In this document: piece after piece, positions 51,045 through 64,000 of the stretch
How positions within the stretch are numbered: the stretch's first letter is position 1
Layout: each line of letters begins with the position of its first letter
From: an uncultured archaeon
GTDB lineage: Archaea; Asgardarchaeota; Thorarchaeia; Thorarchaeales; Thorarchaeaceae
NCBI GenBank assembly: GCA_964558645.1
Contig: CAZLEV010000014.1
Coordinates: 1-64,000 of the forward strand
Reading direction: 5' to 3'
DNA length: 64,000 nt
Position numbers and translations under genes: made by a program
Notes under the pieces: model-generated
What the model saw: the letters and a program-made list of their open reading frames with translations, nothing else
Database searches by the model: none
What the model was told of the DNA's origin: nothing

Positions 51045-52562
51045 CTACATTCCGCCCCGCATAAGCTCCATTCGCCCAGCCATGGTCCATGCTGAACTAC
51101 TCCGCCCCCAGCGTCCAACGCTGTAACCTTGCTGGTCATGAATACCTGCAGAAGCAATCTGCTGTTTCATATGAAGAACAGCCGAGATGATGGCCGCTTC
51201 GTGCTCCAGAGTCATCTCTCCTCTGAGCTTCCTCTCCGCCTTGCGTTTCAGGAAATCAAGTGCATATTGTGGGAATAATGCATAGCTCACAAGGTCACGT
51301 TCCTCATGAGGGATGTCCTTTAGAGCCTCCCTTGCCTTGGGGAGCTCTGGCTCAAGTAAATCAGCAGGTCTGCAATCGAGGGGTTCTTCATCACCAATTG
51401 CCTTCTTCTTGACTTCGGGGTCAATCTCAGCTGGCGGGCGACCGTAGTAACCTCTGATGTACTGCTTGACCTCGTGAGGAATCATCTGATAGCGTTCTCC
51501 TGTGATGACATTGAGAGTAGCTTGAGTTCCCACAATCTGGCTTGACGGGGTCACCAGTGGAGGGTAACCGAGTTCTGCACGGACTCTAGGAACCTCCTTC
51601 AGTACCTCATCATATTTATCGAGTGCACCCTGTTCCCTCAATTGATTGTCTAGATTCGAGAGCATACCCCCTGGAATCTGAAATCGCAGAACCTGAGGAT
51701 TCACGCCCTTGAGGCTTCCTTCAAAACCAGTGTACTTACCACGAATCTCCCGGAAATAATCCGCAATCTCAGCAAGCAGAGCCACATCCAGACCTGTATC
51801 TCGCGGCGTGTTTTTCAAGGCCTCAACGATAGACTCCGTTGCAGGTTGGGAAGTAGCAAGTGAGAGTGAGGAGATTGCACAGTCCACAACATCCACGCCA
51901 GCCTCGGCCCCCTTCATGTAGGCCATCGACGCCATCCCACTGGTGTAGTGAGAATGGAGCTGAACTGGAAGTCCAACATCGTCCTTCAGCATCTTCACGA
52001 GGTCATATGCCGCACTCGGAGAGATCAAACCCGCCATGTCTTTGATGCAGATTGAGTCTGCTCCCAGAGATGCCAGTTCAGCAGACTTCTCAGCGAACTT
52101 CTCAAGTGTGTGCACTGGACTGAGAGTATAACTAATACTGGCTTGAACATGAGCACCCTCATTCTTCACACACTTGATTGCGTGTTTCATGTTCCGGATG
52201 TCATTCAGGGCGTCAAAGATTCGGAAGACATCGATACCGCCCTCTGCAGCATGATGCACAAAGGCCTCAACAACGTCATCGGCATAGTGACGGTAACCCA
52301 CCACGTTCTGAGCTCTTAATAACATCTGTAGACGGGTCTTTGGAAGGGCTTCGCGCAGAGCCTCAAGCCGCTCCCAAGGGTTCTCATCCAGAAAACGCAT
52401 CATGGAATCGAAGGTGGCGCCTCCGAACATCTCGAGGGACCAGTAACCCACCTGATCAAGCTTCTCACAGATTGGCAGCATATGTTCTGTCTTCATTCTT
52501 GTCGCGAGAAGAGACTGGTGTGCATCTCTGAGGACTGTGTCTGTAATCTGCAGCCTTGTCAT
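51045..52562 (-). CDS. Pyruvate/oxaloacetate carboxyltransferase subunit (PycB / OadA / transcarboxylase 5S family)
   Basis: LRDAHQSLLATR, GGATFD, FRIFDALND, IKDMAG, HSH, QIPGGMLSN, VTPSSQIVG. Confidence 0.95.
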   Translation of the reverse strand: MTRLQITDTVLRDAHQSLLATRMKTEHMLPICEKLDQVGYWSLEMFGGATFDSMMRFLDENPWERLEALREALPKTRLQMLLRAQNVVGYRHYADDVVEAFVHHAAEGGIDVFRIFDALNDIRNMKHAIKCVKNEGAHVQASISYTLSPVHTLEKFAEKSAELASLGADSICIKDMAGLISPSAAYDLVKMLKDDVGLPVQLHSHYTSGMASMAYMKGAEAGVDVVDCAISSLSLATSQPATESIVEALKNTPRDTGLDVALLAEIADYFREIRGKYTGFEGSLKGVNPQVLRFQIPGGMLSNLDNQLREQGALDKYDEVLKEVPRVRAELGYPPLVTPSSQIVGTQATLNVITGERYQMIPHEVKQYIRGYYGRPPAEIDPEVKKKAIGDEEPLDCRPADLLEPELPKAREALKDIPHEERDLVSYALFPQYALDFLKRKAERKLRGEMTLEHEAAIISAVLHMKQQIASAGIHDQQGYSVGRWGRSSSAWTMAGRMELMRGGM

Positions 52563-52645
52563 TGTGACCCGCGGGTCATGTCACATCTTGCAATATAATA
52601 GCATCTGTCTATGATACACAAGCATCTCTCCTAGCAAAGAGGCTC

Positions 52646-52918
52646 TTACTCGAACTTTCCCCAGTGCTTTGTGATATCGAAATACAGCACAATCTCTGTT
52701 CCATCTGCAAGGCTGATATCCATCTGGTCGATCCAGCGATCATCGATATTCAGTAACGTCTGCCGCACCAGATTCCAGTCAGTGCCTTTCACTCCATACT
52801 TTCGGGAGAGATAGGAGTACTCAGCCTCGATGGCCTCCGTGTGACCAATCACGTTAGATATGACTATGGGGTCGTCTGTTGATGACCCATGTCCCTCGTA
52901 TTTCACCATCGCAAACAC
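52646..52918 (-). CDS. Small hypothetical protein
   Basis: 90-aa ORF with a protein-like pattern G.GSS.DDPIVI...AEY.YL...YFDIT. Confidence 0.7.
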   Translation of the reverse strand: MFAMVKYEGHGSSTDDPIVISNVIGHTEAIEAEYSYLSRKYGVKGTDWNLVRQTLLNIDDRWIDQMDISLADGTEIVLYFDITKHWGKFE

Positions 52919-53070
52919 CTAATCGCGCCTTGTAACTTGACTATTTGGAGTCTATTACGATAGATTCTCAGAAGCATTGAAACCGGACTAGCTTTGGCAA
53001 ATCCATGTACCACCTTGTCGTGTGGGCATCTACTGCAATATCGCTGGCACGAGGATAGAGGTTCTGGTCT

Positions 53071-53121
53071 TGAAGAAAGAAAAAAGAGAGGAGAACTCGA
53101 ACCCCTGAGATGGGGCTCGAG
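53071..53121 (-). terminator. Hairpin plus pyrimidine tract
   Basis: Minus strand CTCGAGCCCC-ATCTCA-GGGGTTCGAG (one G.U pair), then TTCTCCTCTCTTTTTTCTTTCTT. Confidence 0.7.
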
Positions 53122-53135
53122 CACAGAATGTGAAA

Positions 53136-53936
53136 CTATCTACGCTTGATGACCCAGAAGATTGCCACAACCGCCACAATGCCGATTGCGAGCAACAGAA
53201 GTCCACCACCGTCACCAGGAACTAGAGAACCTTCTGCCAGATTCGTGTACGCCACGTACACAGGATCCTGTTGAACTCTCAGACCGTTCCAGTCCGGAAA
53301 GGTCACCGAGTACCACCATTGACTGCTATGGAATGCAGTCTGTGCGTTGGTAACAAGATGCTGTGGACTATTGTAGGTATTCCTGACCTGAGCAGATAGG
53401 CCATAGGCCATGTGAGCGAAGAGGAATGCAGACAGGGGTGCTTGCCATGCTATGAGCAGGAAGTCCCCAGGATTCGTAGCCAGCAGAGCATTCAGAGCAT
53501 TGACTCCCTGCAAGACTGTGATTCCGCTTGTTTCGTTTATCAGGTCGTATTCTCTACCTAGACCGATGTCGAAGGCACGCTCCTGATCATCACCAATCGT
53601 TATGGTCAGGTTGTCATCCAGCAATTCCGTGCTGGTCGGAGGAGTAATCTTGTTTCCACTTGAGCTGCGGGTCACGTTGTAGTTGCTCTCAAAGGTCGAG
53701 AGATAGTGAACCGCACTTATCGCCATGCTCTCGCTAATGACCTCCGAGGGGTCCTTGTCCTGAAAACCCATCCGAACGCGATTTACCTGTCCTATGGTAT
53801 AGACGGTCTCAGCGTGTACCTCGCCCGTTGTCTGATCAATCTGGATGTCATATTCAATGACTATCTCGCTGAACAGCACAGTCATGAACGGGAACAGAAG
53901 GCTGAGCCAGAAGCCACCCTGGGCTGAAACAACCGT
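53136..53936 (-). pseudogene. 3' fragment of a C-terminally anchored surface protein gene, truncated by the TnpB-like element
   Basis: The frame stays open upstream of ATG 53885 (TVVSAQGGFWLSLLFPF) until TGA at 53937-53939 inside the tnpB 3' flank. It has a C-terminal TM plus KRR, but no signal peptide and no room for a promoter. Confidence 0.7.
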
Positions 53937-54040
53937 TCATTGTAAGTTGGACAAGCTTGGACATCAAGCAGTCCGTCCAGGAGCGGCACTGGACTGGTGA
54001 TTGTGCACGTGAATGATGTTTCGTGCCGCATTCACATCGG
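53935..54040 (-). ncRNA. Putative omega/reRNA scaffold and element right end overlapping the tnpB 3' end
   Basis: Minus-strand stems GTGAATG/CATTCAC, GTCCAG/CTGGAC and CAGTCC/GGACTG, tandem TGTCCAA, ending TTACAATGAAC where the host frame resumes. The position matches known TnpB guide-RNA loci; the 5' boundary is unknown. Confidence 0.5.
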
Positions 54041-56123
54041 CATGGAAGTGCTCCTCACACCTCCCACAGTAGAAGTACTCCCCACCCCTTCTCTCCCTCG
54101 TGGAACTCTCATGCTCCACCCGGACTCCCCGCCCCCCACAGACATGGCAGGTCTGAGAGGTCCACGCCGGGCTCACCGTCCAGATCCCACCGTAGCGGTG
54201 GCCCAGAGTCTGCCGCATGTACCGTATGGTGTCCAGCACCTTGGACCAGAGATTGTTCGATAGCCGCCACGAGTGAGTGCCATAGCCCCTGGGCGGCTGG
54301 TAGTTTTTGAGGTTCTCCAGATACAGGGTCTTGACCCCGTGGCGCTCACAGAACCAGACGGCCTCTGACGCAATCTGTCGGGCTATCTCCCTGTCCAGCC
54401 TGCGAATCTTGCGCCAGATGGCTGCAAGACGACGCTCCTTCTTCCTCAGATGCCCGGGCCTTGGACAGTCCTCCCCGTGCTTCTTCTCCCAGTTGTTCCG
54501 CATCAAGGCCACTCTCGATGACAACTGCCGGGTCTGCTGTCGGAGAAGATCCCTCTTCTCGACCAGCCCTTCAAGAGAGATGAGCTCATCGACATACTCT
54601 TCCTCACCATCTCTCACCGAGAGCACGATAGGCACACGGATTCCTCGGTCGGCACCGGCTCTCCTGTTGTAGTGCCGTTCACCCAGGACCGCATCTACCA
54701 TCTCTCGAGTTGGCGGGAGGAAGGGGATCTGGAGTTCTACTCTGTGCTCACGAAGCAAGAGGCGAGGTGGGCCGCAGGTTCTGGACTTCCTGAGCTGCTG
54801 CACCTTCTCCTTCAGTTGTGCAAGCTGCTCAGGGTCCGCATCCTTTCGGTTTCTCCACTTCGCCAACTGGTAGGTAGTATGCTGGAGTTCGATGGTGTTC
54901 ATGAGCTGTTCGTGTTGATCCTCGAACCGCACGGCCCGGAATCGCAGCTTCTTGGCTCGCAGGTGCTTCCCAGCTCGCTCTGCCTCATCGCCCTTCATCC
55001 GGTCCTTGACGGCAGCCCGTGGGAGCCAGTCCAGAAACCTGAGGCCAAGGGTTCTGACTCGGAAGGGCGAGGCATCATGCTCCGCTCCCTCCATCGCCTC
55101 TGGCAGCTTCAGGAAGAACAGCACCTCGTTCTCCTTCTCCAAGTCCTGTGAGTACCAGTAGCCCTGACCGGGAGAGTTCTCGGTGCTTGCTGAGAAGTCC
55201 TCGGTGTGGGAGTACATCCTCGGGACCTTGAAGGGATAGCCCTCCGTGGTGAACTGATGAAGGAGGGCCTGAACGGAAGCCATGGCCTCTGAGCACTCCT
55301 TGTTATCTTTGACGTACCGTCGAACACGGCGCCGCTGCGATGGTCTGGAACCAAGGGGCTCTCCGCGTTCGCTCAGGATGTGCTCATCGAGAGCTCGACG
55401 AAGCTGCTTCAGAACAGAGAGGGCGTAGTAGTAGCCTGAACCATTGTTCTTCGTGCTCTCGCATCTGGAGCGCAGATCTTTTACCATGTCCGAGGGGATG
55501 TATTTGTTCTTCAGTAATCGCAGAAGAGTATCCTGTTCCTCATTGAGAAGTCCGATAGCTGTCTTCATGAGCTGACGCCGTAGCCAGTTGGACTGGATGA
55601 TCCGAGCCGCCTGCTCCAGGACGTTCCGGTAGAGTCTCTCGAAGCACTGCTTGCTGATATCGGGATTGTCCTTGTATGCAAGATACTCCTCCTTCTTCAA
55701 CAGGACATATCCCTGTCCTCGATAGGAGTTCAGCTCGTCTCCAAGGAAGTCAATCCGTTCACGGGAAGCATACACACGCTCGAGAACGAGATTCACGAGC
55801 TCTACATACTTCTCGAAGTATCGACCCAGAAGAGAGAGGTCCACATCCCTGACCTTTCGCCCGGTAGCCGCCTCGATATCTTTTCGTACAGGTTCAGGAC
55901 TCCAGCGGCGAAATCGAGGATCGGGTCGCTTCCCTTTCCCCTTCGTGTTCACCTCTCTATCTACCGAGCAGAGGGTGAACGACTGTACCAGATACTTCAG
56001 TCCCGTATTCTGATGCGCGGTTGATGGAAACAATATAAGTTTGCCATCCATTGTGAGATGCTTCTGGGAATCATCAGACTCCTCTTGCTTCCGGGGACGG
56101 CGCCGGACTACCTTGGTCATCAA
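53964..56123 (-). CDS. tnpB: Large TnpB/Cas12-like RNA-guided endonuclease (719 aa)
   Basis: RuvC-I AGADRG, bridge-helix-like WRKIRRLDREIARQIA, RuvC-II LYLENL, VSPAWTSQTCHVCG...YFYCGRC zinc finger, RuvC-III HADVNAARNI. All three catalytic residues are present. Confidence 0.92.
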   Translation of the reverse strand: MMTKVVRRRPRKQEESDDSQKHLTMDGKLILFPSTAHQNTGLKYLVQSFTLCSVDREVNTKGKGKRPDPRFRRWSPEPVRKDIEAATGRKVRDVDLSLLGRYFEKYVELVNLVLERVYASRERIDFLGDELNSYRGQGYVLLKKEEYLAYKDNPDISKQCFERLYRNVLEQAARIIQSNWLRRQLMKTAIGLLNEEQDTLLRLLKNKYIPSDMVKDLRSRCESTKNNGSGYYYALSVLKQLRRALDEHILSERGEPLGSRPSQRRRVRRYVKDNKECSEAMASVQALLHQFTTEGYPFKVPRMYSHTEDFSASTENSPGQGYWYSQDLEKENEVLFFLKLPEAMEGAEHDASPFRVRTLGLRFLDWLPRAAVKDRMKGDEAERAGKHLRAKKLRFRAVRFEDQHEQLMNTIELQHTTYQLAKWRNRKDADPEQLAQLKEKVQQLRKSRTCGPPRLLLREHRVELQIPFLPPTREMVDAVLGERHYNRRAGADRGIRVPIVLSVRDGEEEYVDELISLEGLVEKRDLLRQQTRQLSSRVALMRNNWEKKHGEDCPRPGHLRKKERRLAAIWRKIRRLDREIARQIASEAVWFCERHGVKTLYLENLKNYQPPRGYGTHSWRLSNNLWSKVLDTIRYMRQTLGHRYGGIWTVSPAWTSQTCHVCGGRGVRVEHESSTRERRGGEYFYCGRCEEHFHADVNAARNIIHVHNHQSSAAPGRTA

Positions 56124-56314
56124 TCGTGCACCTCTCTTCTGTCTGGGTCTGATAATATAATCTCATGAACCAATATAAGTTTATCAAGACGAAAAGGCAA
56201 TTAGAGCATTATGAAGCCTATTTCGCTTCTATAAGGCTCTCATAACTCTTTTCTTTTCTCTGTTTGGTCACAGTCTATTTATAAGTAACTTTGACTTTAG
56301 ACTCTAGAAGTATC
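56124..56314. promoter_or_regulatory. AT-rich divergent promoter region with a long imperfect inverted repeat
   Basis: TTTATAAG at 56278-56285, about 30 bp before ATG 56315. TTATA-type boxes on the minus strand near 56152-56178. Inverted repeat at 56203-56240. Confidence 0.55.
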
Positions 56315-59300
56315 ATGGGACGCAGACCGAGATTGCTTCGCCCGAATGCTGTGCTAGCGAGAGCGAAGCATGCTGGTCTCATGGCCCTTGTCAACCTCCT
56401 TGGCCCTAGAGCCAGTGGCGACCTCGTGAAGTACTACCGTTCAACAACAAAGATGTGGGATGCCGTTCGATCTGCTCTTCGGGCTCAGGGCGGAGAGCGA
56501 GAGGACTACCTGGTTCTTAACGACACGGAGCCAAACATGCGGAAGTCCTTTCTCCAGTTCCTGTGGCACAGCACTGTACCCTACGGCAACAAGGAGTTCA
56601 AACGGGTCTACGACTGGACTGAGGGTACGGTGGGGCCGCTCAATGTCCTCTTGAACTACGCGGGAGCACGACTAAGGGACCTGGCAATGACGCGGTATCC
56701 CTTTCCTGAACCACGGGTCTTCCAGATAGCAAGGTTCCCGGATGGCACGGTGAGGGTCTATTCTCTAGCCCTCGTCAACCGGCTGAAGGCAAAGGGTCTG
56801 TACCCACCAAGTGACTTCGGCAAGAACACCGAAACCTCCTGGAAGGCGGGCTACAGCGGGACAACAAAGACTCCACAGGTCTACCTTGCGCACCCCACTC
56901 TCCCAAGCCTTGATTTTGTCGATATGATACGCGCCCACGTTGTCGAGCTCTGCAGACAGTGCTTCATCTACAGTGTTCCTCGCACTGAGGCCCACCGCTA
57001 CATCCGACTCCTGGTCTACCGGCTGCGACCCTTCCTCGACTGGGTCTACACTGAGAGGGCCACAGGCCGACCCAACTTCAACCGGGATGCCAACAGGGAA
57101 CTCCGAGAGATCGTACTGGAGATCAGAGCGTTGTACGGACTTCATGCCGGGCAGAGACAGTCGATCACTCGGTCCCTAGATATACCATCGCCAATCACTC
57201 TTGGGGATATCCGTAAGGCGGTAAAATGTCTCCCGCAAAAGACGGTGGATGAGGGCGAGATGACACTCTATCAGAGCATGAAGGACCAGATCGATGCCGG
57301 GACTGTGGTGGAACGGGATGCCGACAAGCTCACTGACCAGCTCTCCTCATCGACTTCACAGGAGGGCAACCGCTGGCACAGGATCCTCCTCTCGGGCTTC
57401 CACCACCCTGCCTCACTGAAGCAGGTGGTCTTTGCCGGGGACACCATGTTGGACCAGCCCTCCTCCGTCTTGGCTGTCGCAGAGCTTCCCGTAGACTCAC
57501 GACGGGGACAGGCTGACCTCGTGTTCTTCCTCCGCCGAGAGCTCGAGAAGCGGACCATCTGGACACCGATCATGATTCTTGAGGTCAAGACCAAGAGTGC
57601 CTTCGATATCAACCTCTACGGTGTTGAGGTGGGGAGCAGAGAGGAGAACGAGTATGCGCCCGCCTTCTTTGCGTGGAAGAGGGCACTCACAGGGGGCGAG
57701 TGGAATGCATTGCTCACATCACCGCCGAAGAAGAGCACAAAAGGTCAGCTCGATGCGTACGAACAGGCCATCATCAGGGAGTACAAGCGCACGGCGGACT
57801 TCGACCCGACACCGCCCACCTCTCTCTGGAAGGGGGTCATCGTCCTGGATGCTGACCAGATTCCCATTGATGCATACTCAGCATTTCAGACTCTCATCGA
57901 AAACCTGCTGGTGGAACTGACAGGTGACACTTTCCAGGCCCCACCAAAGACTATCTCACAGGTGCTTGATACAGACAGTATCTTGCCTTCTCCCCGGGTG
58001 GCGCTGCTCCTTCTGCCAGACGCAGGCCCTGATAGAATCCTCTCTCAGAGAGCCCCTCCGGCAGAGTTGGTCTCCGAGGACCCCTTTGCGGATCGCATTA
58101 CAGACGACCGCATACTCACAGTCTACGTGTCCGTTCCCTCCCCGACATCATCAGGTAAGACGTCCGCATGGCAGTCGTCCAACTGGCACCTTCTCCACCA
58201 CATCAGAGAGTGCAGAGAGGCCTCATCGCAAGAGATAGGTGTGTTCTGGCTGGATCTCATGGGGGACTACCAGACGGCTCAGCTGGCCAATCTACGGTTT
58301 GGACTTGACAGACTCCTTGCCGAGAGGAAGATATCCCGGCAGGAACACGGCGAGCTGGTCGCCGAGGTGGAGGATATCTCCTTCGTTGACCTTCATGTTC
58401 ACACAGAGAAACTCCTGCGGGGCGAGAACGATTCCATAGAGGGCATGCTAACCACTATCTGCAATGCTGTTGAAACCGAGGTCGAGAAGATCATCATCAT
58501 CGATGGGTGGGACGAACTGAGTAAGATGGTTCCCAATCATTCTCGTCATCTCCTACGCGCCCTGGAAGTGCAGCTACTGGATACGCTCCCCTCGACAGAC
58601 ACGAACATCATCTGGATCGATACCGGGACCGAGGACACCCTGACCTCCGCAGACTGTCAGCGAGGATGCATCAAACCTCTCCGCCATGACTCTCCCCGCA
58701 GGACGCACCTCGACGAGGTGATCTATAACCTCCCGTCCCCTCCGCGCGTCTTCGGCAACCTGTCCCCCTGGCGTGAGGACATACGAGTCATTGTTCAGGA
58801 CACCCCCACATCGGCACCCCCATGGAGAACCACCATCCACGTCCCTCACCTTTTGGGTGCAGCAGAGCGATTCCGGGGGGCCTCCTCGAGGCATGGTTCA
58901 CTCTCACAGGATGATGTGGCAAGGTTGGAGGTGAACGACTCCAGGATGTACGCGCGGAACATCAACCTCTCCTCCATCCAGTCCGGGCTGGGGAACCTAA
59001 CCATGGACACGCTCGACAACGTCATGGAACAGTCCTGCAGTCTGGTTCCGAGTCTATGCCGTGCGAGAGACGGCCAAGAACAGCAGCCGCAGGAGGCACT
59101 GGAGATTCCGCAGATACTGGTGCAGGGTATCAGCTCTGCCAGGGCAAGTACCCAGCGGCAACGCCTCCGGTTCCAACCGGCTCGACCGCCTCCAGACCCC
59201 GTACGCTCTAAGGACAGGTATGTGGAGTCTGGGAAGATCACACGGCGGTGGTTCTATGAACGGAACCCCACACCCCGGCCTGAGATACCTGCCCGGCCTC

Positions 59301-61939
59301 GTAGCCTCTGTCGCCCACCAGTTCCTTCTGAATTGGATGCTGTGACTCTTGACAGCTGTAGCACACGGAGATGGGAACTCAAGCGTTTCCTCACAACTGC
59401 AAGATACTTGGCAGCACGACCCCTAGGCAGGACCCTCAAGGGTGTCTGCGAGGAGATTGCCGACCTCTGTCAGGATGTCCTCTCAGACTCTGAAGACACT
59501 GGGGATGGCGATGCCTACTTGGATACCCTGTCCTTGGTCCGAGATATCATCCTCTCAGAAACATCCCTATCTCCGGTCTGGGAGAGACTCCGACCCGGAC
59601 GGGAGCAGCTTCTCGATCTCCTGAACTCTGACAACAGGAAACATCTGGAGACCATCACAAAAGAGATTCCGGATGCTCTTCTTCTCTATGGAAACAACCT
59701 GTTCCTCATGGTCTGCGCGGCTGCGCAGGAGGAGAACTCTTGTCACTACGAAACGCTGTGGGCAGCGCTGGCTGAGTGGACGCTCTACCAGATGGGACTA
59801 CGGTCCAAGGACAGTGCCTTCAAATCGAAGTATGACCTCTATTCCATCTACCGGACCCTCCGGTCCCGCGCACGGACTCTATCTGACCGGAACATTCCGG
59901 AGACCTCCCTCTCACAGGCATCCACTGGCCAGATCATCTGGTGGGAGGAAGGAGATAGCAGCAAAGGCCTCTTGGTGTTTCCTGACCAGCGGGGAGAGAT
60001 GGTCTCAGGCCTGGTCACCACCGGGGCCGATGCGTCTCTCCGACCGACGTGGTATCGATGTGATATGCATCCAGGCTCACTGAGGGAGTACTCAAGGAGT
60101 ACTCTAAGCTCGGAGGAACGGACTACCATCATGCTTTCGGATGTGGCTGAGCACAGGATACTTTGGCTGCCTACTGATGATGATGAGTGGTGGCCGTACC
60201 TCCTCACCCACGGATGCCCCGACAAGAACCAGCGGACCATTCCCTGGCTGAAACTCACTGATCCCTTCACGGTCCCCGATATCACCCAGAGTCTGCTCAT
60301 CCCGCCAACACCAGACAGTGACCCCGGTCAGGCCGTGGACCAGTATCTTCGCGAGCTTGGCCAGCTGGAGAGACCCGTCACGCCTGTCAAGCTGGAGGTC
60401 TCTGTGGATCCTCGTCGAGGGGTGTATGTGGTCCAGTTCACGGGGGATGGCATCTCTGTGGAGGAGGAGTTCAGCGACACTGATGAGCTGGTGGGGGTCC
60501 TCCGCTATCCCATCCGAAGAGGGGTTGGATACGACACTGCTGCCGGGGCGGTCACGTGGGACCACAAAGAGGACATCACGTACACGGATGACTCCCTGAC
60601 CTGCCTCATCCCGCTGGTCTTGAAGAGCAGGTTTCTCCCTGACCACTACTCCTATCCAGAGAGCTGCGCTGAGTTGTTGGCCGCATCGGCGGGCGGGGAT
60701 GTGACGCTGACGATATGGACTGAGAGGAGTGGAAGCGGGTTTCGGCTGCAGCTTCAGGGACTGGAGGATGACTCACCCCTCAGATCCCTCGAAGAGGCCT
60801 CTCCCTCTCTGTACGAGGTGGGGCTCCTTGCCGAGTGCGAACAGCTCATCGACACAAAAAACCGGCTTCGCCACGAGGTGGAGCTGGACGTGTCAGGCCA
60901 CTTGGACCTCAGTGCGTCACAGGTGGAACGGTATCCTGCCCTCTCTCATGCACTGGCAGAGGTGGATCGGGATGCCTTCGACTGGAGTCGTGGCTCGTGG
61001 GGTGTCCGGTGGAGCTATGTCTCACGCGAAGACCGGCTGACGTGGAGCATCGTGGAACTCTCCTCTCGGCGAGCATGGCTGGACCAGACCTATACGTTTC
61101 AGCCTGATCCTAGTTCCAGCGTTGATACCGTCCTCGAGGCGTTCAAGCAAGACGTCGCCGCTGTGGTGCCTCTCGGACATCTTGATGGGTTGGAGGACTC
61201 AATGGCAGAGCTCAGGGATGAGCTGGAGAGTCATGGCTGGAGGGACACACCTCCGACGTACGTAGGCGAGGTCCAGCACGGAGTGGAGGAGTATACCCTG
61301 GTCATCAGCAGGGTGGAGAGGGATGGCTCATTGAAGCGGGTGGAGGCCATCAGTCTCACCGCTGAGCGGGTAGAGGAACTCCTTGAGGTACTTGACCACG
61401 AGGGTTTCGAGGCCTGGCCGTACTCTCTTGAGAATCAGGGGGAGATACGGGAGGCGCTCAAGGCAATCCATGAGGGAGTGGATCTCTCTGACGTGGCCGT
61501 AAATGAGGACGATGTACTCGCGAGGGAGTACGAAGAAGTCATCACAGAATATAGAGAGGAGGTTCTAGAGGCGCCTGAGGAACTGAAGTATCTAGCAAAG
61601 ACGTTGGTCTACTACGCTCAGCTTTGCGCTGAGAGGGGGCAACCGGTGGAGGCGCTGCAGCTCGTAGAGGAAGGGATCGGTCTGCTCAGGGAGGAAGACC
61701 TGAGCGACATCATCGTCCTTCAGGCTCTTGCGAGAGGACTCATCCTCAGGTCCCACTGCCTCCTTCATCTTGATATCGAGAAACGAAACGAAGTCAAGAG
61801 AGATATGGAGGAGTCGAGAGGGCTCTTGACAGAGCTTCGAAGACGTGGAGAGAAGATCACTGCAGACACCCTGGCAACCAAGATGCGAGCCATTGAGCCA
61901 CAGATTCATGATGATTCAGACGGAATAGACGGACGTTGA
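56315..61939 (+). CDS. Giant (~1875 aa) protein with RecB-type PD-(D/E)XK nuclease, P-loop-like and C-terminal TPR-like regions
   Basis: AELPV...GQADLV...ILEVKT...GQLDAY; SPTSSGKT...WLDLMGDY...IIIIDGWDE; C-terminal LAKTLVYYAQL...ALQLVEEGIGLL helices. ORF track start is 56291 (TTG); ATG 56315 is preferred. Confidence 0.8.
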   Translation: MGRRPRLLRPNAVLARAKHAGLMALVNLLGPRASGDLVKYYRSTTKMWDAVRSALRAQGGEREDYLVLNDTEPNMRKSFLQFLWHSTVPYGNKEFKRVYDWTEGTVGPLNVLLNYAGARLRDLAMTRYPFPEPRVFQIARFPDGTVRVYSLALVNRLKAKGLYPPSDFGKNTETSWKAGYSGTTKTPQVYLAHPTLPSLDFVDMIRAHVVELCRQCFIYSVPRTEAHRYIRLLVYRLRPFLDWVYTERATGRPNFNRDANRELREIVLEIRALYGLHAGQRQSITRSLDIPSPITLGDIRKAVKCLPQKTVDEGEMTLYQSMKDQIDAGTVVERDADKLTDQLSSSTSQEGNRWHRILLSGFHHPASLKQVVFAGDTMLDQPSSVLAVAELPVDSRRGQADLVFFLRRELEKRTIWTPIMILEVKTKSAFDINLYGVEVGSREENEYAPAFFAWKRALTGGEWNALLTSPPKKSTKGQLDAYEQAIIREYKRTADFDPTPPTSLWKGVIVLDADQIPIDAYSAFQTLIENLLVELTGDTFQAPPKTISQVLDTDSILPSPRVALLLLPDAGPDRILSQRAPPAELVSEDPFADRITDDRILTVYVSVPSPTSSGKTSAWQSSNWHLLHHIRECREASSQEIGVFWLDLMGDYQTAQLANLRFGLDRLLAERKISRQEHGELVAEVEDISFVDLHVHTEKLLRGENDSIEGMLTTICNAVETEVEKIIIIDGWDELSKMVPNHSRHLLRALEVQLLDTLPSTDTNIIWIDTGTEDTLTSADCQRGCIKPLRHDSPRRTHLDEVIYNLPSPPRVFGNLSPWREDIRVIVQDTPTSAPPWRTTIHVPHLLGAAERFRGASSRHGSLSQDDVARLEVNDSRMYARNINLSSIQSGLGNLTMDTLDNVMEQSCSLVPSLCRARDGQEQQPQEALEIPQILVQGISSARASTQRQRLRFQPARPPPDPVRSKDRYVESGKITRRWFYERNPTPRPEIPARPRSLCRPPVPSELDAVTLDSCSTRRWELKRFLTTARYLAARPLGRTLKGVCEEIADLCQDVLSDSEDTGDGDAYLDTLSLVRDIILSETSLSPVWERLRPGREQLLDLLNSDNRKHLETITKEIPDALLLYGNNLFLMVCAAAQEENSCHYETLWAALAEWTLYQMGLRSKDSAFKSKYDLYSIYRTLRSRARTLSDRNIPETSLSQASTGQIIWWEEGDSSKGLLVFPDQRGEMVSGLVTTGADASLRPTWYRCDMHPGSLREYSRSTLSSEERTTIMLSDVAEHRILWLPTDDDEWWPYLLTHGCPDKNQRTIPWLKLTDPFTVPDITQSLLIPPTPDSDPGQAVDQYLRELGQLERPVTPVKLEVSVDPRRGVYVVQFTGDGISVEEEFSDTDELVGVLRYPIRRGVGYDTAAGAVTWDHKEDITYTDDSLTCLIPLVLKSRFLPDHYSYPESCAELLAASAGGDVTLTIWTERSGSGFRLQLQGLEDDSPLRSLEEASPSLYEVGLLAECEQLIDTKNRLRHEVELDVSGHLDLSASQVERYPALSHALAEVDRDAFDWSRGSWGVRWSYVSREDRLTWSIVELSSRRAWLDQTYTFQPDPSSSVDTVLEAFKQDVAAVVPLGHLDGLEDSMAELRDELESHGWRDTPPTYVGEVQHGVEEYTLVISRVERDGSLKRVEAISLTAERVEELLEVLDHEGFEAWPYSLENQGEIREALKAIHEGVDLSDVAVNEDDVLAREYEEVITEYREEVLEAPEELKYLAKTLVYYAQLCAERGQPVEALQLVEEGIGLLREEDLSDIIVLQALARGLILRSHCLLHLDIEKRNEVKRDMEESRGLLTELRRRGEKITADTLATKMRAIEPQIHDDSDGIDGR

Positions 61940-61948
61940 GAATATTCC

Positions 61949-62191
61949 TCATCCAAGAGTCTTACTTGCACCCAGTTCAATGGTGCGGGCTATCTGCAAG
62001 CGGTTCTTGTGAATGGCCGTGGTGATGCGGTAAAGCGACACGATGAGGCTGTTGGTCTTGTACGTCTCGTAGAATCTCTCCTTTTGCTCGCGGAGCAGGT
62101 GAGCCGCTTCAGGGAATTGGTATTCCTCTCCGGTGGTCGATACCAGCTCGACGAGCGCATCAGCAATCTGTTGGTCGATGGACGAGTCCAT
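61949..62191 (-). CDS. Small helical hypothetical protein
   Basis: 80-aa ATG ORF preceded by GAGGA, filling the gap between larger genes. Confidence 0.5.
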   Translation of the reverse strand: MDSSIDQQIADALVELVSTTGEEYQFPEAAHLLREQKERFYETYKTNSLIVSLYRITTAIHKNRLQIARTIELGASKTLG

Positions 62192-62289
62192 GATACAGCC
62201 ATCCTCTCAGACTCCTGCACTGGCCTATATAGACTGCGCCATTAGAAGGCGATATCGTTTTGAGTTCGCTCTTTCAATTGATGGGTATC

Positions 62290-62736
62290 ATGACTCTTGA
62301 ACGGGGAGTACTGGAGAGCATCTGCAGACTTGTGATGGAGCTGAGCATGAGAAAGCGTCGTGGGCTACACACCATGACACTGAGGAGGATCAAGAGGCTC
62401 TTGGAGACGATGGGCTGGTCGGTCATCCTAGAGTTCGAGACCTATTTCGACACGGTCATCAGATACAGGAAAAAGTTGTCGCGGGTGCGTGGCTTTATCG
62501 ATCTCCTTGCTCGGAAGGGAGAGAGGCAGGTCATTGCTGTGGTGTTCGACAACACCAACGTCCTGAAGTATCGGAGCATCGAGAAACTCCTGCAACATCC
62601 GGGGATGGTGATAGGAATGACCGCCGGTCGCTATGGGGTGGACAATCGGGCACGGATTGAACGGGTCATGCGGGAACGGGGGCAGTGGAGATGCTCGGAG
62701 TTCTGGCTGATAGAGGTGGGTCAGGAGAGGATTTAG
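62290..62736 (+). CDS. Basic protein with restriction-endonuclease-like (PD-(D/E)XK) pattern
   Basis: GWSVILEF...GFIDLLARKG..VIAVVFD...SIEKL. The expected second acidic residue appears to be V, so it may be inactive. Confidence 0.5.
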   Translation: MTLERGVLESICRLVMELSMRKRRGLHTMTLRRIKRLLETMGWSVILEFETYFDTVIRYRKKLSRVRGFIDLLARKGERQVIAVVFDNTNVLKYRSIEKLLQHPGMVIGMTAGRYGVDNRARIERVMRERGQWRCSEFWLIEVGQERI

Positions 62737-62885
62737 CGATTTGTCGGCGATTTCAGTCCCGTGTCAGAGGAGTGGGTTCTGGACTCTCAAGGTCGGCTGA
62801 ACCTGCAGTAATGTTTCATAGCTAGATTAGGAATAGTGGCTAGTCATGAAGAGGTTTATGAACCCTCAGGCATCTTTTCTAACAG

Positions 62886-63395
62886 ATGGTAGTCGTGGAC
62901 GAATCTCATCTAGAACACATTCACAGGGTTCGGGGAGAGCAATGGACCATCATCATCACAGCGATTCTTTTTGGCTTGACTCTTAACCTGACATCCGACT
63001 TCATCAGTTCAGTTTATGACGTGTCTGTTGATTCAGCTACTTTGGCAGTTAGAGGTATTGTTGCAGGTCTAGCCTCTCTCGTCACAATAGCCACGATGTG
63101 GTGGCTAGCAGTTCGCAGTCTGAGTCCTCTATGCAAGGTACAACGTGATATCCAAGTTTCATATTTCTTCGATACTGACACTGGATATCCGCATGATGTT
63201 CCCGGATACCCTCCCACGGAGAGGGTTCTTTCCGAGTTTGCTCGATCTACAGAGAAGCAAAAGGAGGAATTCAGTCAGGCAATAAGGAAGGCGGGCGAAT
63301 CGACGAAGTCTGCCACATCGGAGCTCCCAAATCTGGTTCCTTTCCTCGAACTTCTCACAATGCTCAGGCGGAATGAGCTCAGAAAACCTCGTTGA
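62886..63395 (+). pseudogene. Two-TM membrane protein, probably 3'-truncated
   Basis: Two TM helices then a soluble region. Overlaps the convergent ORF by 237 bp. Confidence 0.5.
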
Positions 63396-63707
63396 CTTAA
63401 GGGCATTCCACCGAGTAGGCAGGATTATGTAGTAATGTTCACCAGTTGCCATGTCCCGTGCCACCCGGGTGACATCCCTCAATGATTCCTGCAAATAACA
63501 CTCCATCCTCTCTCGTTCCCTCTTGACCAGGAAGTACTGCTCTAGGCTAATTGCTCCCAGAAAGCCCAATAGCGAACCGATTATATCAGGGCAGAATTGA
63601 TGATATCCAAAAACGGAGGGCACTATGAGGAAACTTATTGATATGGCAAAAACGTTCACAGCCGCCTTTCTCCACCAATTGAGCCGTGAATCGAATGATG
63701 TTGACAT
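63159..63707 (-). pseudogene. Two-TM membrane protein, probably 3'-truncated
   Basis: Two TM helices and LPTRWNALKS. Beyond about 63360 the translation becomes Arg/Leu-rich antisense of the neighbouring ORF. Confidence 0.5.
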
Positions 63708-63804
63708 GATTAGGTTCCCAATCGCATTTCAGAGCTTGGGCATGTTAGTATCACCTAATGTTTCTGCGCCGTTTCCGTGAACGTGAAGCCGAAAATATTA
63801 GGAT

Positions 63805-64000
63805 TTACGATTTCTGACCCTCCAGTATATCCTGAATCACCATCAGTTTCTCCGTCATACGCTTCCCCTTCTCGGTGATCACCAGAAAGGTCTTGGGTCG
63901 AGCGCCCTCCTCCATCTCCTCCCGGATGATGCTTATCCATGGCGATTTGCTCTGAATTCCCTGACTTGATTTAGGTTGTTTCATGCCTTCGAGTTGCATA
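63805..64000 (-). CDS. Winged-helix DNA-binding protein, C-terminal part (may start beyond the window)
   Basis: IIREEMEEGARPKTFLVITEKGKRM is a wHTH wing plus the (L/I)TEKG motif. Confidence 0.65.
   Translation of the reverse strand, partial: MQLEGMKQPKSSQGIQSKSPWISIIREEMEEGARPKTFLVITEKGKRMTEKLMVIQDILEGQKS

Follow-up and report, generated by a model that had tools for sequence, protein, structure and literature searches.

The window analyzed here comprises positions 1 to 64,000 of contig CAZLEV010000014.1 (GenBank assembly GCA_964558645.1), a 64,000-nucleotide stretch from an uncultured archaeon of the Thorarchaeaceae, a family in the Asgardarchaeota class Thorarchaeia. Near its right end, a gene for a large TnpB protein lies head-to-head with a giant open reading frame (ORF) whose product is predicted to begin with a Cas1-type integrase fold, that of Asgard Cas1 (aCas1). 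An initial annotation proposed that the pair represents a new RNA-guided system without a transposase. This proposal did not hold, because the pairing is already published, a Cas1 fold is predicted in the giant protein, and complete relatives of the element carry a serine transposase, TnpA. We are instead highly confident that the window copy is a non-autonomous derivative of the IS607 family that has kept an intact TnpB and its right end.

The contig, C14, belongs to a 3.63-Mb, short-contig assembly of metagenome type (genome label G000; 93% complete, 6% contamination). This assembly has partly merged near-identical copies, with blocks of 100% identity between them. G-, C-, and L-numbers below denote genomes, contigs, and loci, and G073 and G074 are genomes of the same genus (congeners).

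The tnpB gene (53,964 to 56,120, reverse strand) encodes 718 amino acids (aa) from an ATG start and matches PF07282 (E = 3e-12). Alignment indicates that the RuvC triad D491-E602-D695 and the C4 zinc finger are intact, and the ratio of nonsynonymous to synonymous substitution rates (dN/dS) is 0.15-0.23. The giant ORF (56,315 to 61,939, forward strand) has 1874 aa from its ATG, or 1882 aa from an upstream TTG. Between the two genes lies an AT-rich region of ~190 bp (56,121 to 56,314; GC content 0.35) that is conserved among copies and presumably contains divergent promoters. Each gene has a GC content of 0.57 and a third-codon-position GC content (GC3) of 0.67-0.68, versus 0.49±0.02 and 0.52±0.04 for 119 ORFs of another contig used as the host baseline. 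Thus, both the shared AT-rich spacer and the elevated GC content that had been noted for this pair are confirmed.

Next to the tnpB end is the 3' part of an interrupted host gene (53,136 to 53,932, reverse strand) for a secreted or membrane-anchored protein of ~452 aa when intact. The gene is whole in the two congeners (452 and 449 aa), and the window's part is 94% (G074) and 86% (G073) identical to the C-terminal 264 aa of these ORFs, so the earlier observation that the tnpB end breaks a host gene is correct. Both congeners have AAGGG|TTGTGT at the empty site; the corresponding junction of the window is CAATGAACGG|TTGTTT. As also noted previously, the missing 5' half (~190 codons) is not on the other side of tnpB, and a search widened to the entire 93%-complete assembly did not find it.

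No CRISPR array lies beside the effector, with only chance-level repeats from 52,500 to 64,000, and no terminal inverted repeats are present in the window. A Y1 transposase was not found in the assembly. A DDE transposase gene just beyond the window (C14:64941-65714) is part of an unrelated multicopy insertion sequence.

Predicted domains of the giant protein

Residues of the giant protein are numbered from the TTG at 56,291. Its first domain (56,315 to 57,190, forward strand) resembles the catalytic, helical domain of Cas1. An AlphaFold (AF2) model of aa 9-300 has a mean confidence score (pLDDT) of 91, and in a VIA structure search with this model the top 12 matches are all Cas1 proteins or casposases (Z 9.0-13.3; casposase, Z 11.2), with the next match at 6.2. 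The Cas1 matches superimpose with a root-mean-square deviation (rmsd) of 3.5-4.1 over 146-195 residues. Stand-alone Cas1 proteins align only starting at chain residue 80-115, so the domain appears to lack the beta domain found at the N terminus of Cas1. The candidate active site consists of E80, which is present in 59 of 61 homologs, and of H201, D208, D211, and R214, which are present in all 61; these residues presumably match the E141, H208, D221 site of E. coli Cas1. The name aCas1 was reportedly introduced by Makarova et al. in CRISPR J in 2020.

The domain is elusive in other searches. Pfam and PDB sequence searches did not detect it, PF01867 is matched weakly by 2 of 56 family members, and an HHalign comparison with ordinary Cas1 is weak (E = 0.037), with E80 aligned to the conserved Cas1 glutamate. 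Foldseek returned no match for it at E≤0.001, with Cas1 chains among the top rows. The initial annotation had recognized no transposase or integrase here; this remains accurate in that the window copy lacks tnpA, but not in that aa 9-300 are modeled as a Cas1 catalytic fold. One ordinary Cas1 gene is located elsewhere in the genome (C4:109177-110016).

The second domain (57,293 to 57,970, forward strand) carries a PD-(D/E)xK nuclease motif (H363, E398, D409, E431, K433) that is kept in 99-106 of 106 homologs. Its neighbors in ESM feature space are mostly PD-(D/E)xK families, with named matches at 0.80-0.86, which we treat as a lead only. The third domain (58,100 to 59,032, forward strand; aa ~604-914) has a RecA/RAD51-paralog/KaiC fold according to Foldseek (E = 8e-5) and VIA (Z 11-12, rmsd ~4 over ~200 residues). 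Its Walker A motif is degenerate, with the lysine present in only 27 of 106 homologs, and judging from its sequence the domain is probably not a working ATPase.

The remainder (59,348 to 61,939, forward strand) consists of a confidently modeled, conserved C-terminal region (aa ~1020-1540) and a variable tail (aa ~1560-1882). A search with aa 1010-1560 gave no usable Atlas match. Values of dN/dS are 0.24-0.27 in the C-terminal core and 0.56 in the tail, and all conserved domains are under purifying selection (dN/dS 0.12-0.27) in copies that lack tnpA and the left end. The protein had been described as a giant nuclease/P-loop/TPR protein. The nuclease motif and the RecA-fold P-loop domain stand, with the P-loop lysine limited to the homologs counted above, but the TPR assignment is rejected; PF13428 scores below the cut-off (E = 0.22), and the tail is absent in many homologs.

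Pairing with TnpB and an IS607-type element

The proposal that the two genes are functional partners rather than chance neighbors is well supported by their co-occurrence. This genome contains six copies of the giant gene, four of which are directly head-to-head with tnpB. For a fifth copy, a contig overlap of 55 nt provides the link to tnpB; the sixth is close to the end of a contig, and that end resembles another tnpB contig. In other genomes, TnpB adjoins the giant gene in 57 of 60 judgeable loci (23/23 plus 34/37), 56 of them head-to-head, although these loci are related and the counts are therefore not independent. The arrangement recurs in dozens of loci from 13 genera, nearly all with unrelated flanks. 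Of 87 genomes of the class Thorarchaeia, 49 contain the giant-protein family, and none of the 87 genomes searched from other families of the phylum does. It was found in one Thorarchaeia family only, and its named homologs are almost all from Ca. Thorarchaeota.

The partners belong to two distant TnpB clades, one of ~560-aa proteins with a GTTCACTCA motif downstream and the window's clade of ~720-aa proteins. The aCas1 tree implies at least 10 switches between these clades, and TnpB is kept at nearly every locus. Within the window's clade, the TnpB and aCas1 trees co-vary (Mantel rho 0.76, n = 37). Viewed from the TnpB side, aCas1 is present at 39 of 51 judgeable loci of this clade and absent at 12. 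Two of these 12, plus the copy at C2:25186, retain the start of the aCas1 gene. The tnpB-only copies in other contexts that could have undermined the pairing do exist, as do miniatures of ~190 bp, but several are visibly deletion products.

Some elements are accompanied by an uncharacterized gene of ~225-250 aa (L076, L219, L105, L096; L052, L214, L216, L217, and C30 of G000). One sub-clade has tnpA, aCas1, the ~225-250-aa gene, and tnpB in tandem rather than head-to-head. A PCNA-like gene lies directly 3' of aCas1 in the closest sister copy (G000 C27:21483-22343), and G000 C10:1-1054 is an internal-deletion chimera in which a tnpB fragment is fused to the aCas1 3' end.

The identity of the element is evident from its right end, CAATGAAC-GG (53,933 to 53,965, reverse strand), which has a GG core at 53,933-53,934 and a sub-terminal TTGGACA in common with the left end of relatives. 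About 35 copies of this end occur in the genome, and empty sites show the GG(T) core. Overlapping the tnpB 3' end is a predicted omegaRNA scaffold (53,933 to 54,042, reverse strand) with a conserved hairpin at ~53,976-53,993. Across 63 homologous ends, the consensus fold is -7.5 kcal/mol versus -0.1±0.3 kcal/mol for column-shuffled alignments, and a 5-bp stem is paired in 63 of 63 ends with changes on both sides. The window sequence on its own is not unusually stable (z = -0.3), and Rfam has no model for this RNA.

From work on IS607 TnpBs (PMC10711439; 10.1101/2023.11.20.567912), the guide is expected to be the flank past the right end (53,913 to 53,932, reverse strand). This predicted guide matches the empty allele, with GGG, the predicted target-adjacent motif (TAM), located 5' of the match. 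For the guides of ~40 right ends in this genome, no convincing GG-anchored target was found elsewhere in the genome.

A serine TnpA (PF00239 with an N-terminal MerR-type helix-turn-helix, HTH) adjoins the aCas1 gene in 11 related loci, and in ten of these the two genes converge at their stops. A left end, GGG|T-n6-ACAGCT-n9-TGGACA, precedes tnpA and is found in 14 of 30 relatives. One complete relative is 8,016 bp long, is filled by three ORFs (TnpA, aCas1, and TnpB), and forms a clean insertion at GATGGG|TCTA when compared with the empty sites in two congeners. Similarly, a 206-bp miniature is inserted at AG|GGTCAC, where only the GG(T) core is shared and no target duplication is present. Insertion at a GG core without duplication is the footprint described for IS607 (PMC6188088; 10.1101/2023.11.20.567912). 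The empty site of a further locus, L048, was not found.

In this genome, at least 20 ORF-less miniatures (~190-210 bp) have the left end given above on one side and the right end seen in the window on the other. More broadly, ORF-less IS607 miniatures of ~60-210 bp that retain the omegaRNA 3' end occupy ~30 sites in the genome (for example, C15:56938-57148, C28:25294-25484, and C16:23816); for one of them, both congeners have the site empty. A 4.9-kb element of G000 (C5:222111-227012) begins with a left end and finishes with a tnpB tail and right end; it also contains a broken tnpA and two host-like genes, and it might reflect gene capture.

The window copy has no tnpA, no left end within 4 kb of the aCas1 stop, and no left end on contig C14, and its left flank is deleted; elsewhere in the assembly, tnpA occurs only as broken pieces. 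Because it lacks the serine TnpA and the left end, we class it as an IS607 derivative and not as a complete member. In place of the tnpA and left end of relatives, it has accessory DNA (61,940 to 64,000) with gene fragments shared with other islands, and this region runs off the contig, with contig overlaps leading to C9 and C32. Fragments of a multicopy, 277-aa uncharacterized gene family with no Pfam match lie at 61,949-62,736, and the family also occurs on C1, C15, and C26.

Beyond the aCas1 stop, the 11 kb to the contig end are largely absent from both congeners. The end of C14 overlaps C9 by exactly 55 nt, and C9, whose sequence is likewise accessory up to that point, leads to the gene preceding the empty site. 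Along this path, the island would measure about 32 kb, and ~660 bp of host DNA would have been lost at the left junction. A sister path (C18 - C32 - module - C1) contains at least 18 kb of accessory DNA and has a 4-5-nt target overlap beyond the GG. Thus, neither left junction of these TnpA-less copies is IS607-like. The islands share cargo, including restriction-modification genes, and no integrase was detected among 10 island proteins by Pfam and a motif scan, which were not exhaustive. The contig overlaps suggest that the window copy probably forms the right end of the ~32-kb island. The earlier estimate of a mobile unit larger than 10 kb is therefore probable for this copy, but complete relatives are only 8 kb.

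Guides copied from tRNA and 16S genes at sister loci

Copies with no detected left end are frequently beside tRNA genes (12/39 and 11/39), as compared with 1 of 19 copies that have a left end and 5 of 300 random windows. Their guides, 14-20 nt long, duplicate tRNA or 16S sequence. Where two congeners share an orthologous site, their guides differ and are almost exact matches to foreign alleles; the G074 guide at a tRNA-His site, for instance, nearly matches the allele of the genome studied here. The common allele of tRNA-Lys(CTT) is present at 16 of 19 loci without a guide and at 0 of 11 with one. Mismatches are more numerous between a guide and its own allele than between a guide and other alleles (permutation p = 0.0009, with kin not independent). 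This is the pattern that would be expected of a homing nuclease whose linked allele is immune, and it offers a reason for the variant tRNA alleles and mini-introns of Thorarchaeia. The window copy lies outside this pattern: it takes its guide from its own flank and has no tRNA nearby.

Examples are TnpB loci beside tRNA-Lys, -Ile, and -His, both in G000 (C6:134003-136332, C16:1-2031, and C2:24984-27387) and elsewhere (L079, L080, L091, L095, L103, L093, and L042); their guides copy the adjacent tRNA, from which the linked allele differs, and foreign alleles match. An aCas1-TnpB locus also lies beside the 3' end of 16S rRNA (L245, C10:126500-126900; L244, C28:1400-1620; L239; L241). Its right end has three guide-like units, one of which matches the intron-less form of a site that bears a short intron in the adjacent 16S gene.

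The GTTCACTCA motif follows tnpB of the ~560-aa clade and is absent after the window's tnpB, whose clade ends in CAATGAACGG. The hypervariable stretch before GTTCACTCA has been proposed to be a guide (PMC10691335). By eye, this stretch looks complementary to the one after the motif (L204, L037, L216, and others), and GG|T follows 15-20 nt later; the canonical RuvC-II glutamate is absent in this clade. The complementarity and the later GG|T suggest that the hypervariable stretch may be a scaffold stem and not a guide.

Possible functions and comparison with known systems

In its complete form, the element would read left end, serine tnpA convergent with the aCas1 fusion, tnpB in divergent orientation, and right end, about 8.0 kb in all. 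First, TnpA acting in trans would use the GG core to connect the element's ends with a GGG|T target, as is seen for the complete relative and the miniature and is presumed for the window copy. Second, TnpB and the right-end omegaRNA would cut an empty allele at GGG plus guide, such that the filled allele is copied (homing); the intact RuvC residues and the biochemistry of IS607 TnpBs point to this step. Third, and least certainly, the giant protein may be TnpB's standing partner at the break, where the PD-(D/E)xK domain would trim ends, the RecA-fold domain would bind or scaffold DNA, and the Cas1 domain would perform strand transfer. Such a partner would let copies without tnpA or the left end, and with long cargo, still be installed or copied. 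Because TnpA explains the movement of complete copies and the Cas1 residues are nonetheless conserved, the Cas1 domain probably serves TnpB in some other way. That the giant protein works at the TnpB break, as in the initial annotation's idea of end processing, is our best guess and falls at or just short of an even chance; the whole explanation, from IS607 derivative through homing to end processing, we judge to be evenly balanced between right and wrong.

Several observations weigh against this explanation. About a quarter of TnpB loci in the window's clade have no aCas1, so aCas1 is not needed in cis. The frequent swapping of partners speaks against a tight, specific interface. As modeled, the Cas1 domain lacks the usual N-terminal dimerization domain, and the RecA-fold domain has no Walker A lysine in most homologs. 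The estimated island size depends on contig overlaps in a metagenome-type assembly with collapsed copies. Finally, the odd left junctions amount to two cases and could result from host repair or later deletion.

A bolder version of the partnership is that the aCas1-nuclease-RecA fusion is TnpB's catalytic partner, which either writes new omegaRNA guides or, at sites cut by TnpB, integrates the element along with cargo of tens of kilobases. We regard this as tentative and rather unlikely. If true, the family would be an RNA-guided gene drive that reprograms itself in a contest over tRNA and 16S alleles, and an intermediate, still living, on the path from OMEGA transposons to CRISPR adaptation. 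It would also show how a nuclease of transposon origin could acquire adaptive targeting in the absence of a CRISPR array, and would amount to a compact system for programmable insertion. The mapped ends, the predicted TAM and guide, and the candidate catalytic residues make the alternatives directly testable.

Guide writing taken by itself is the main rival to the end-processing explanation. Here, aCas1 and the nuclease would resemble a Cas1-Cas4 adaptation module and add short guides at the omegaRNA 3' end, which would permit resident copies to retarget without moving and TnpB to drive its locus against competing tRNA or rRNA alleles. The enrichment of left-end-less copies at tRNA genes, their tRNA- and 16S-derived guides, the different guides at orthologous sites, the allele escape at tRNA-Lys(CTT), the rows of several guides aimed at intron-less 16S, and the near invariance of the Cas1 catalytic residues all fit this idea. 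However, the guide of the window copy is ordinary flank and no tRNA lies nearby, most right ends show no repeat duplication, and there is no array. Moreover, some tRNA-guided loci have no aCas1 in cis (C2:25186; L103), and gene conversion from tRNA alleles is another way in which guides could be renewed. We consider guide writing unlikely on balance.

In the paper where the aCas1-TnpB pairing was reported computationally, aCas1 is proposed to be the transposase (PMC10691335, section 9); it would make both junctions of a casposon-like element. Several observations fit this proposal: a casposase is among the structural matches, no full tnpA was found beside ~46 loci with the other TnpB clade, 12 of 40 of these loci share sequence on both sides, and one sister copy has the 4-5-nt overlap beyond the GG. 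Yet the complete relative and the miniature leave an IS607 footprint without a long duplication, which weakens the proposal at least for complete copies of the window's clade. The flanking repeats are mostly tRNA or 16S pieces or second omegaRNA copies and not target duplications, and the window lacks terminal inverted repeats. We find this reading improbable.

Still less probable is that the giant protein is a defense or addiction effector, or passive cargo, of an ordinary IS607 element. The nuclease domain, the restriction-modification genes in sister islands, and the TnpB copies without the giant protein are compatible with such a role, but cargo would not be expected to persist beside TnpB at 57 of 60 loci and across 10 or more switches of partner, and the integrase-type residues are conserved. 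Chance adjacency after a deletion, which the rearrangement directly after the aCas1 stop codon of the window copy might have suggested, is refuted by the co-occurrence counts across dozens of loci in 13 genera with mostly unrelated flanks, and is rejected as wholly implausible.

The aCas1-TnpB pair is already known as a computational observation. The present analysis contributes counts of allele escape, evidence that partners have been swapped repeatedly, a complete element whose insertion left a clean IS607 footprint, and a probable cargo island. As described in the main text of Altae-Tran et al. 2023 (PMC10691335), Asgard aCas1-TnpB loci constitute Cas1H-Asgard-1 and -2, which have an Asgard host and a diverged Cas1 beside TnpB; the window copy shares both features. 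Those loci also have GTTCACTCA downstream of tnpB, which corresponds to the second TnpB clade of the same giant-protein family. Lacking this motif, the window copy is not of that Cas1H-Asgard sub-type. The same main text makes no mention of IS607 TnpA or GG ends, partner swapping, or tRNA and 16S guides, which its supplement or the 2020 paper may report.

The resemblance to casposons (PMC9939771) is limited to the fold of a stand-alone Cas1-type protein in a mobile element. Unlike casposons, these elements have no PolB, no terminal inverted repeats, and no ~15-bp duplication, and they carry a Cas1 domain without its N-terminal domain, in one polypeptide with a nuclease and a RecA fold. A CRISPR type V locus differs in having an array beside the effector. 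CRISPR- and TnpB-associated Tn7-like transposons likewise place an RNA-guided protein beside a possible integrase, and the sister loci have tRNA-directed guides in common with them; by contrast, the complete element has three ORFs without TnsB, TnsC, or TniQ, and the TnpB catalytic triad is kept, unlike the nuclease-dead effector of such transposons.

As in free-standing homing endonucleases and collaborative homing (PMC10055350), the sister loci appear to target a foreign or intron-less allele while the linked allele is immune. Unlike collaborative homing, the targeting would be RNA guided, and the likeness, read from sequence, concerns the sister loci and not the window copy. With the IS607 family (IS607, IS1535, ISXfa1, and CboIStron; PMC6188088, PMC10711439, 10.1101/2023.11.20.567912), the complete relatives share an HTH serine TnpA together with TnpB, GG termini, a (G)GG target, the lack of target duplication (complete relative and miniature), and a right-end omegaRNA. 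They depart from it in that a 4-6-kb aCas1 fusion, in most cases encoded on the opposite strand, separates tnpA from tnpB, and in having a TnpB of ~720 aa; the window copy departs further in having lost tnpA and the left end and in being joined to long cargo.

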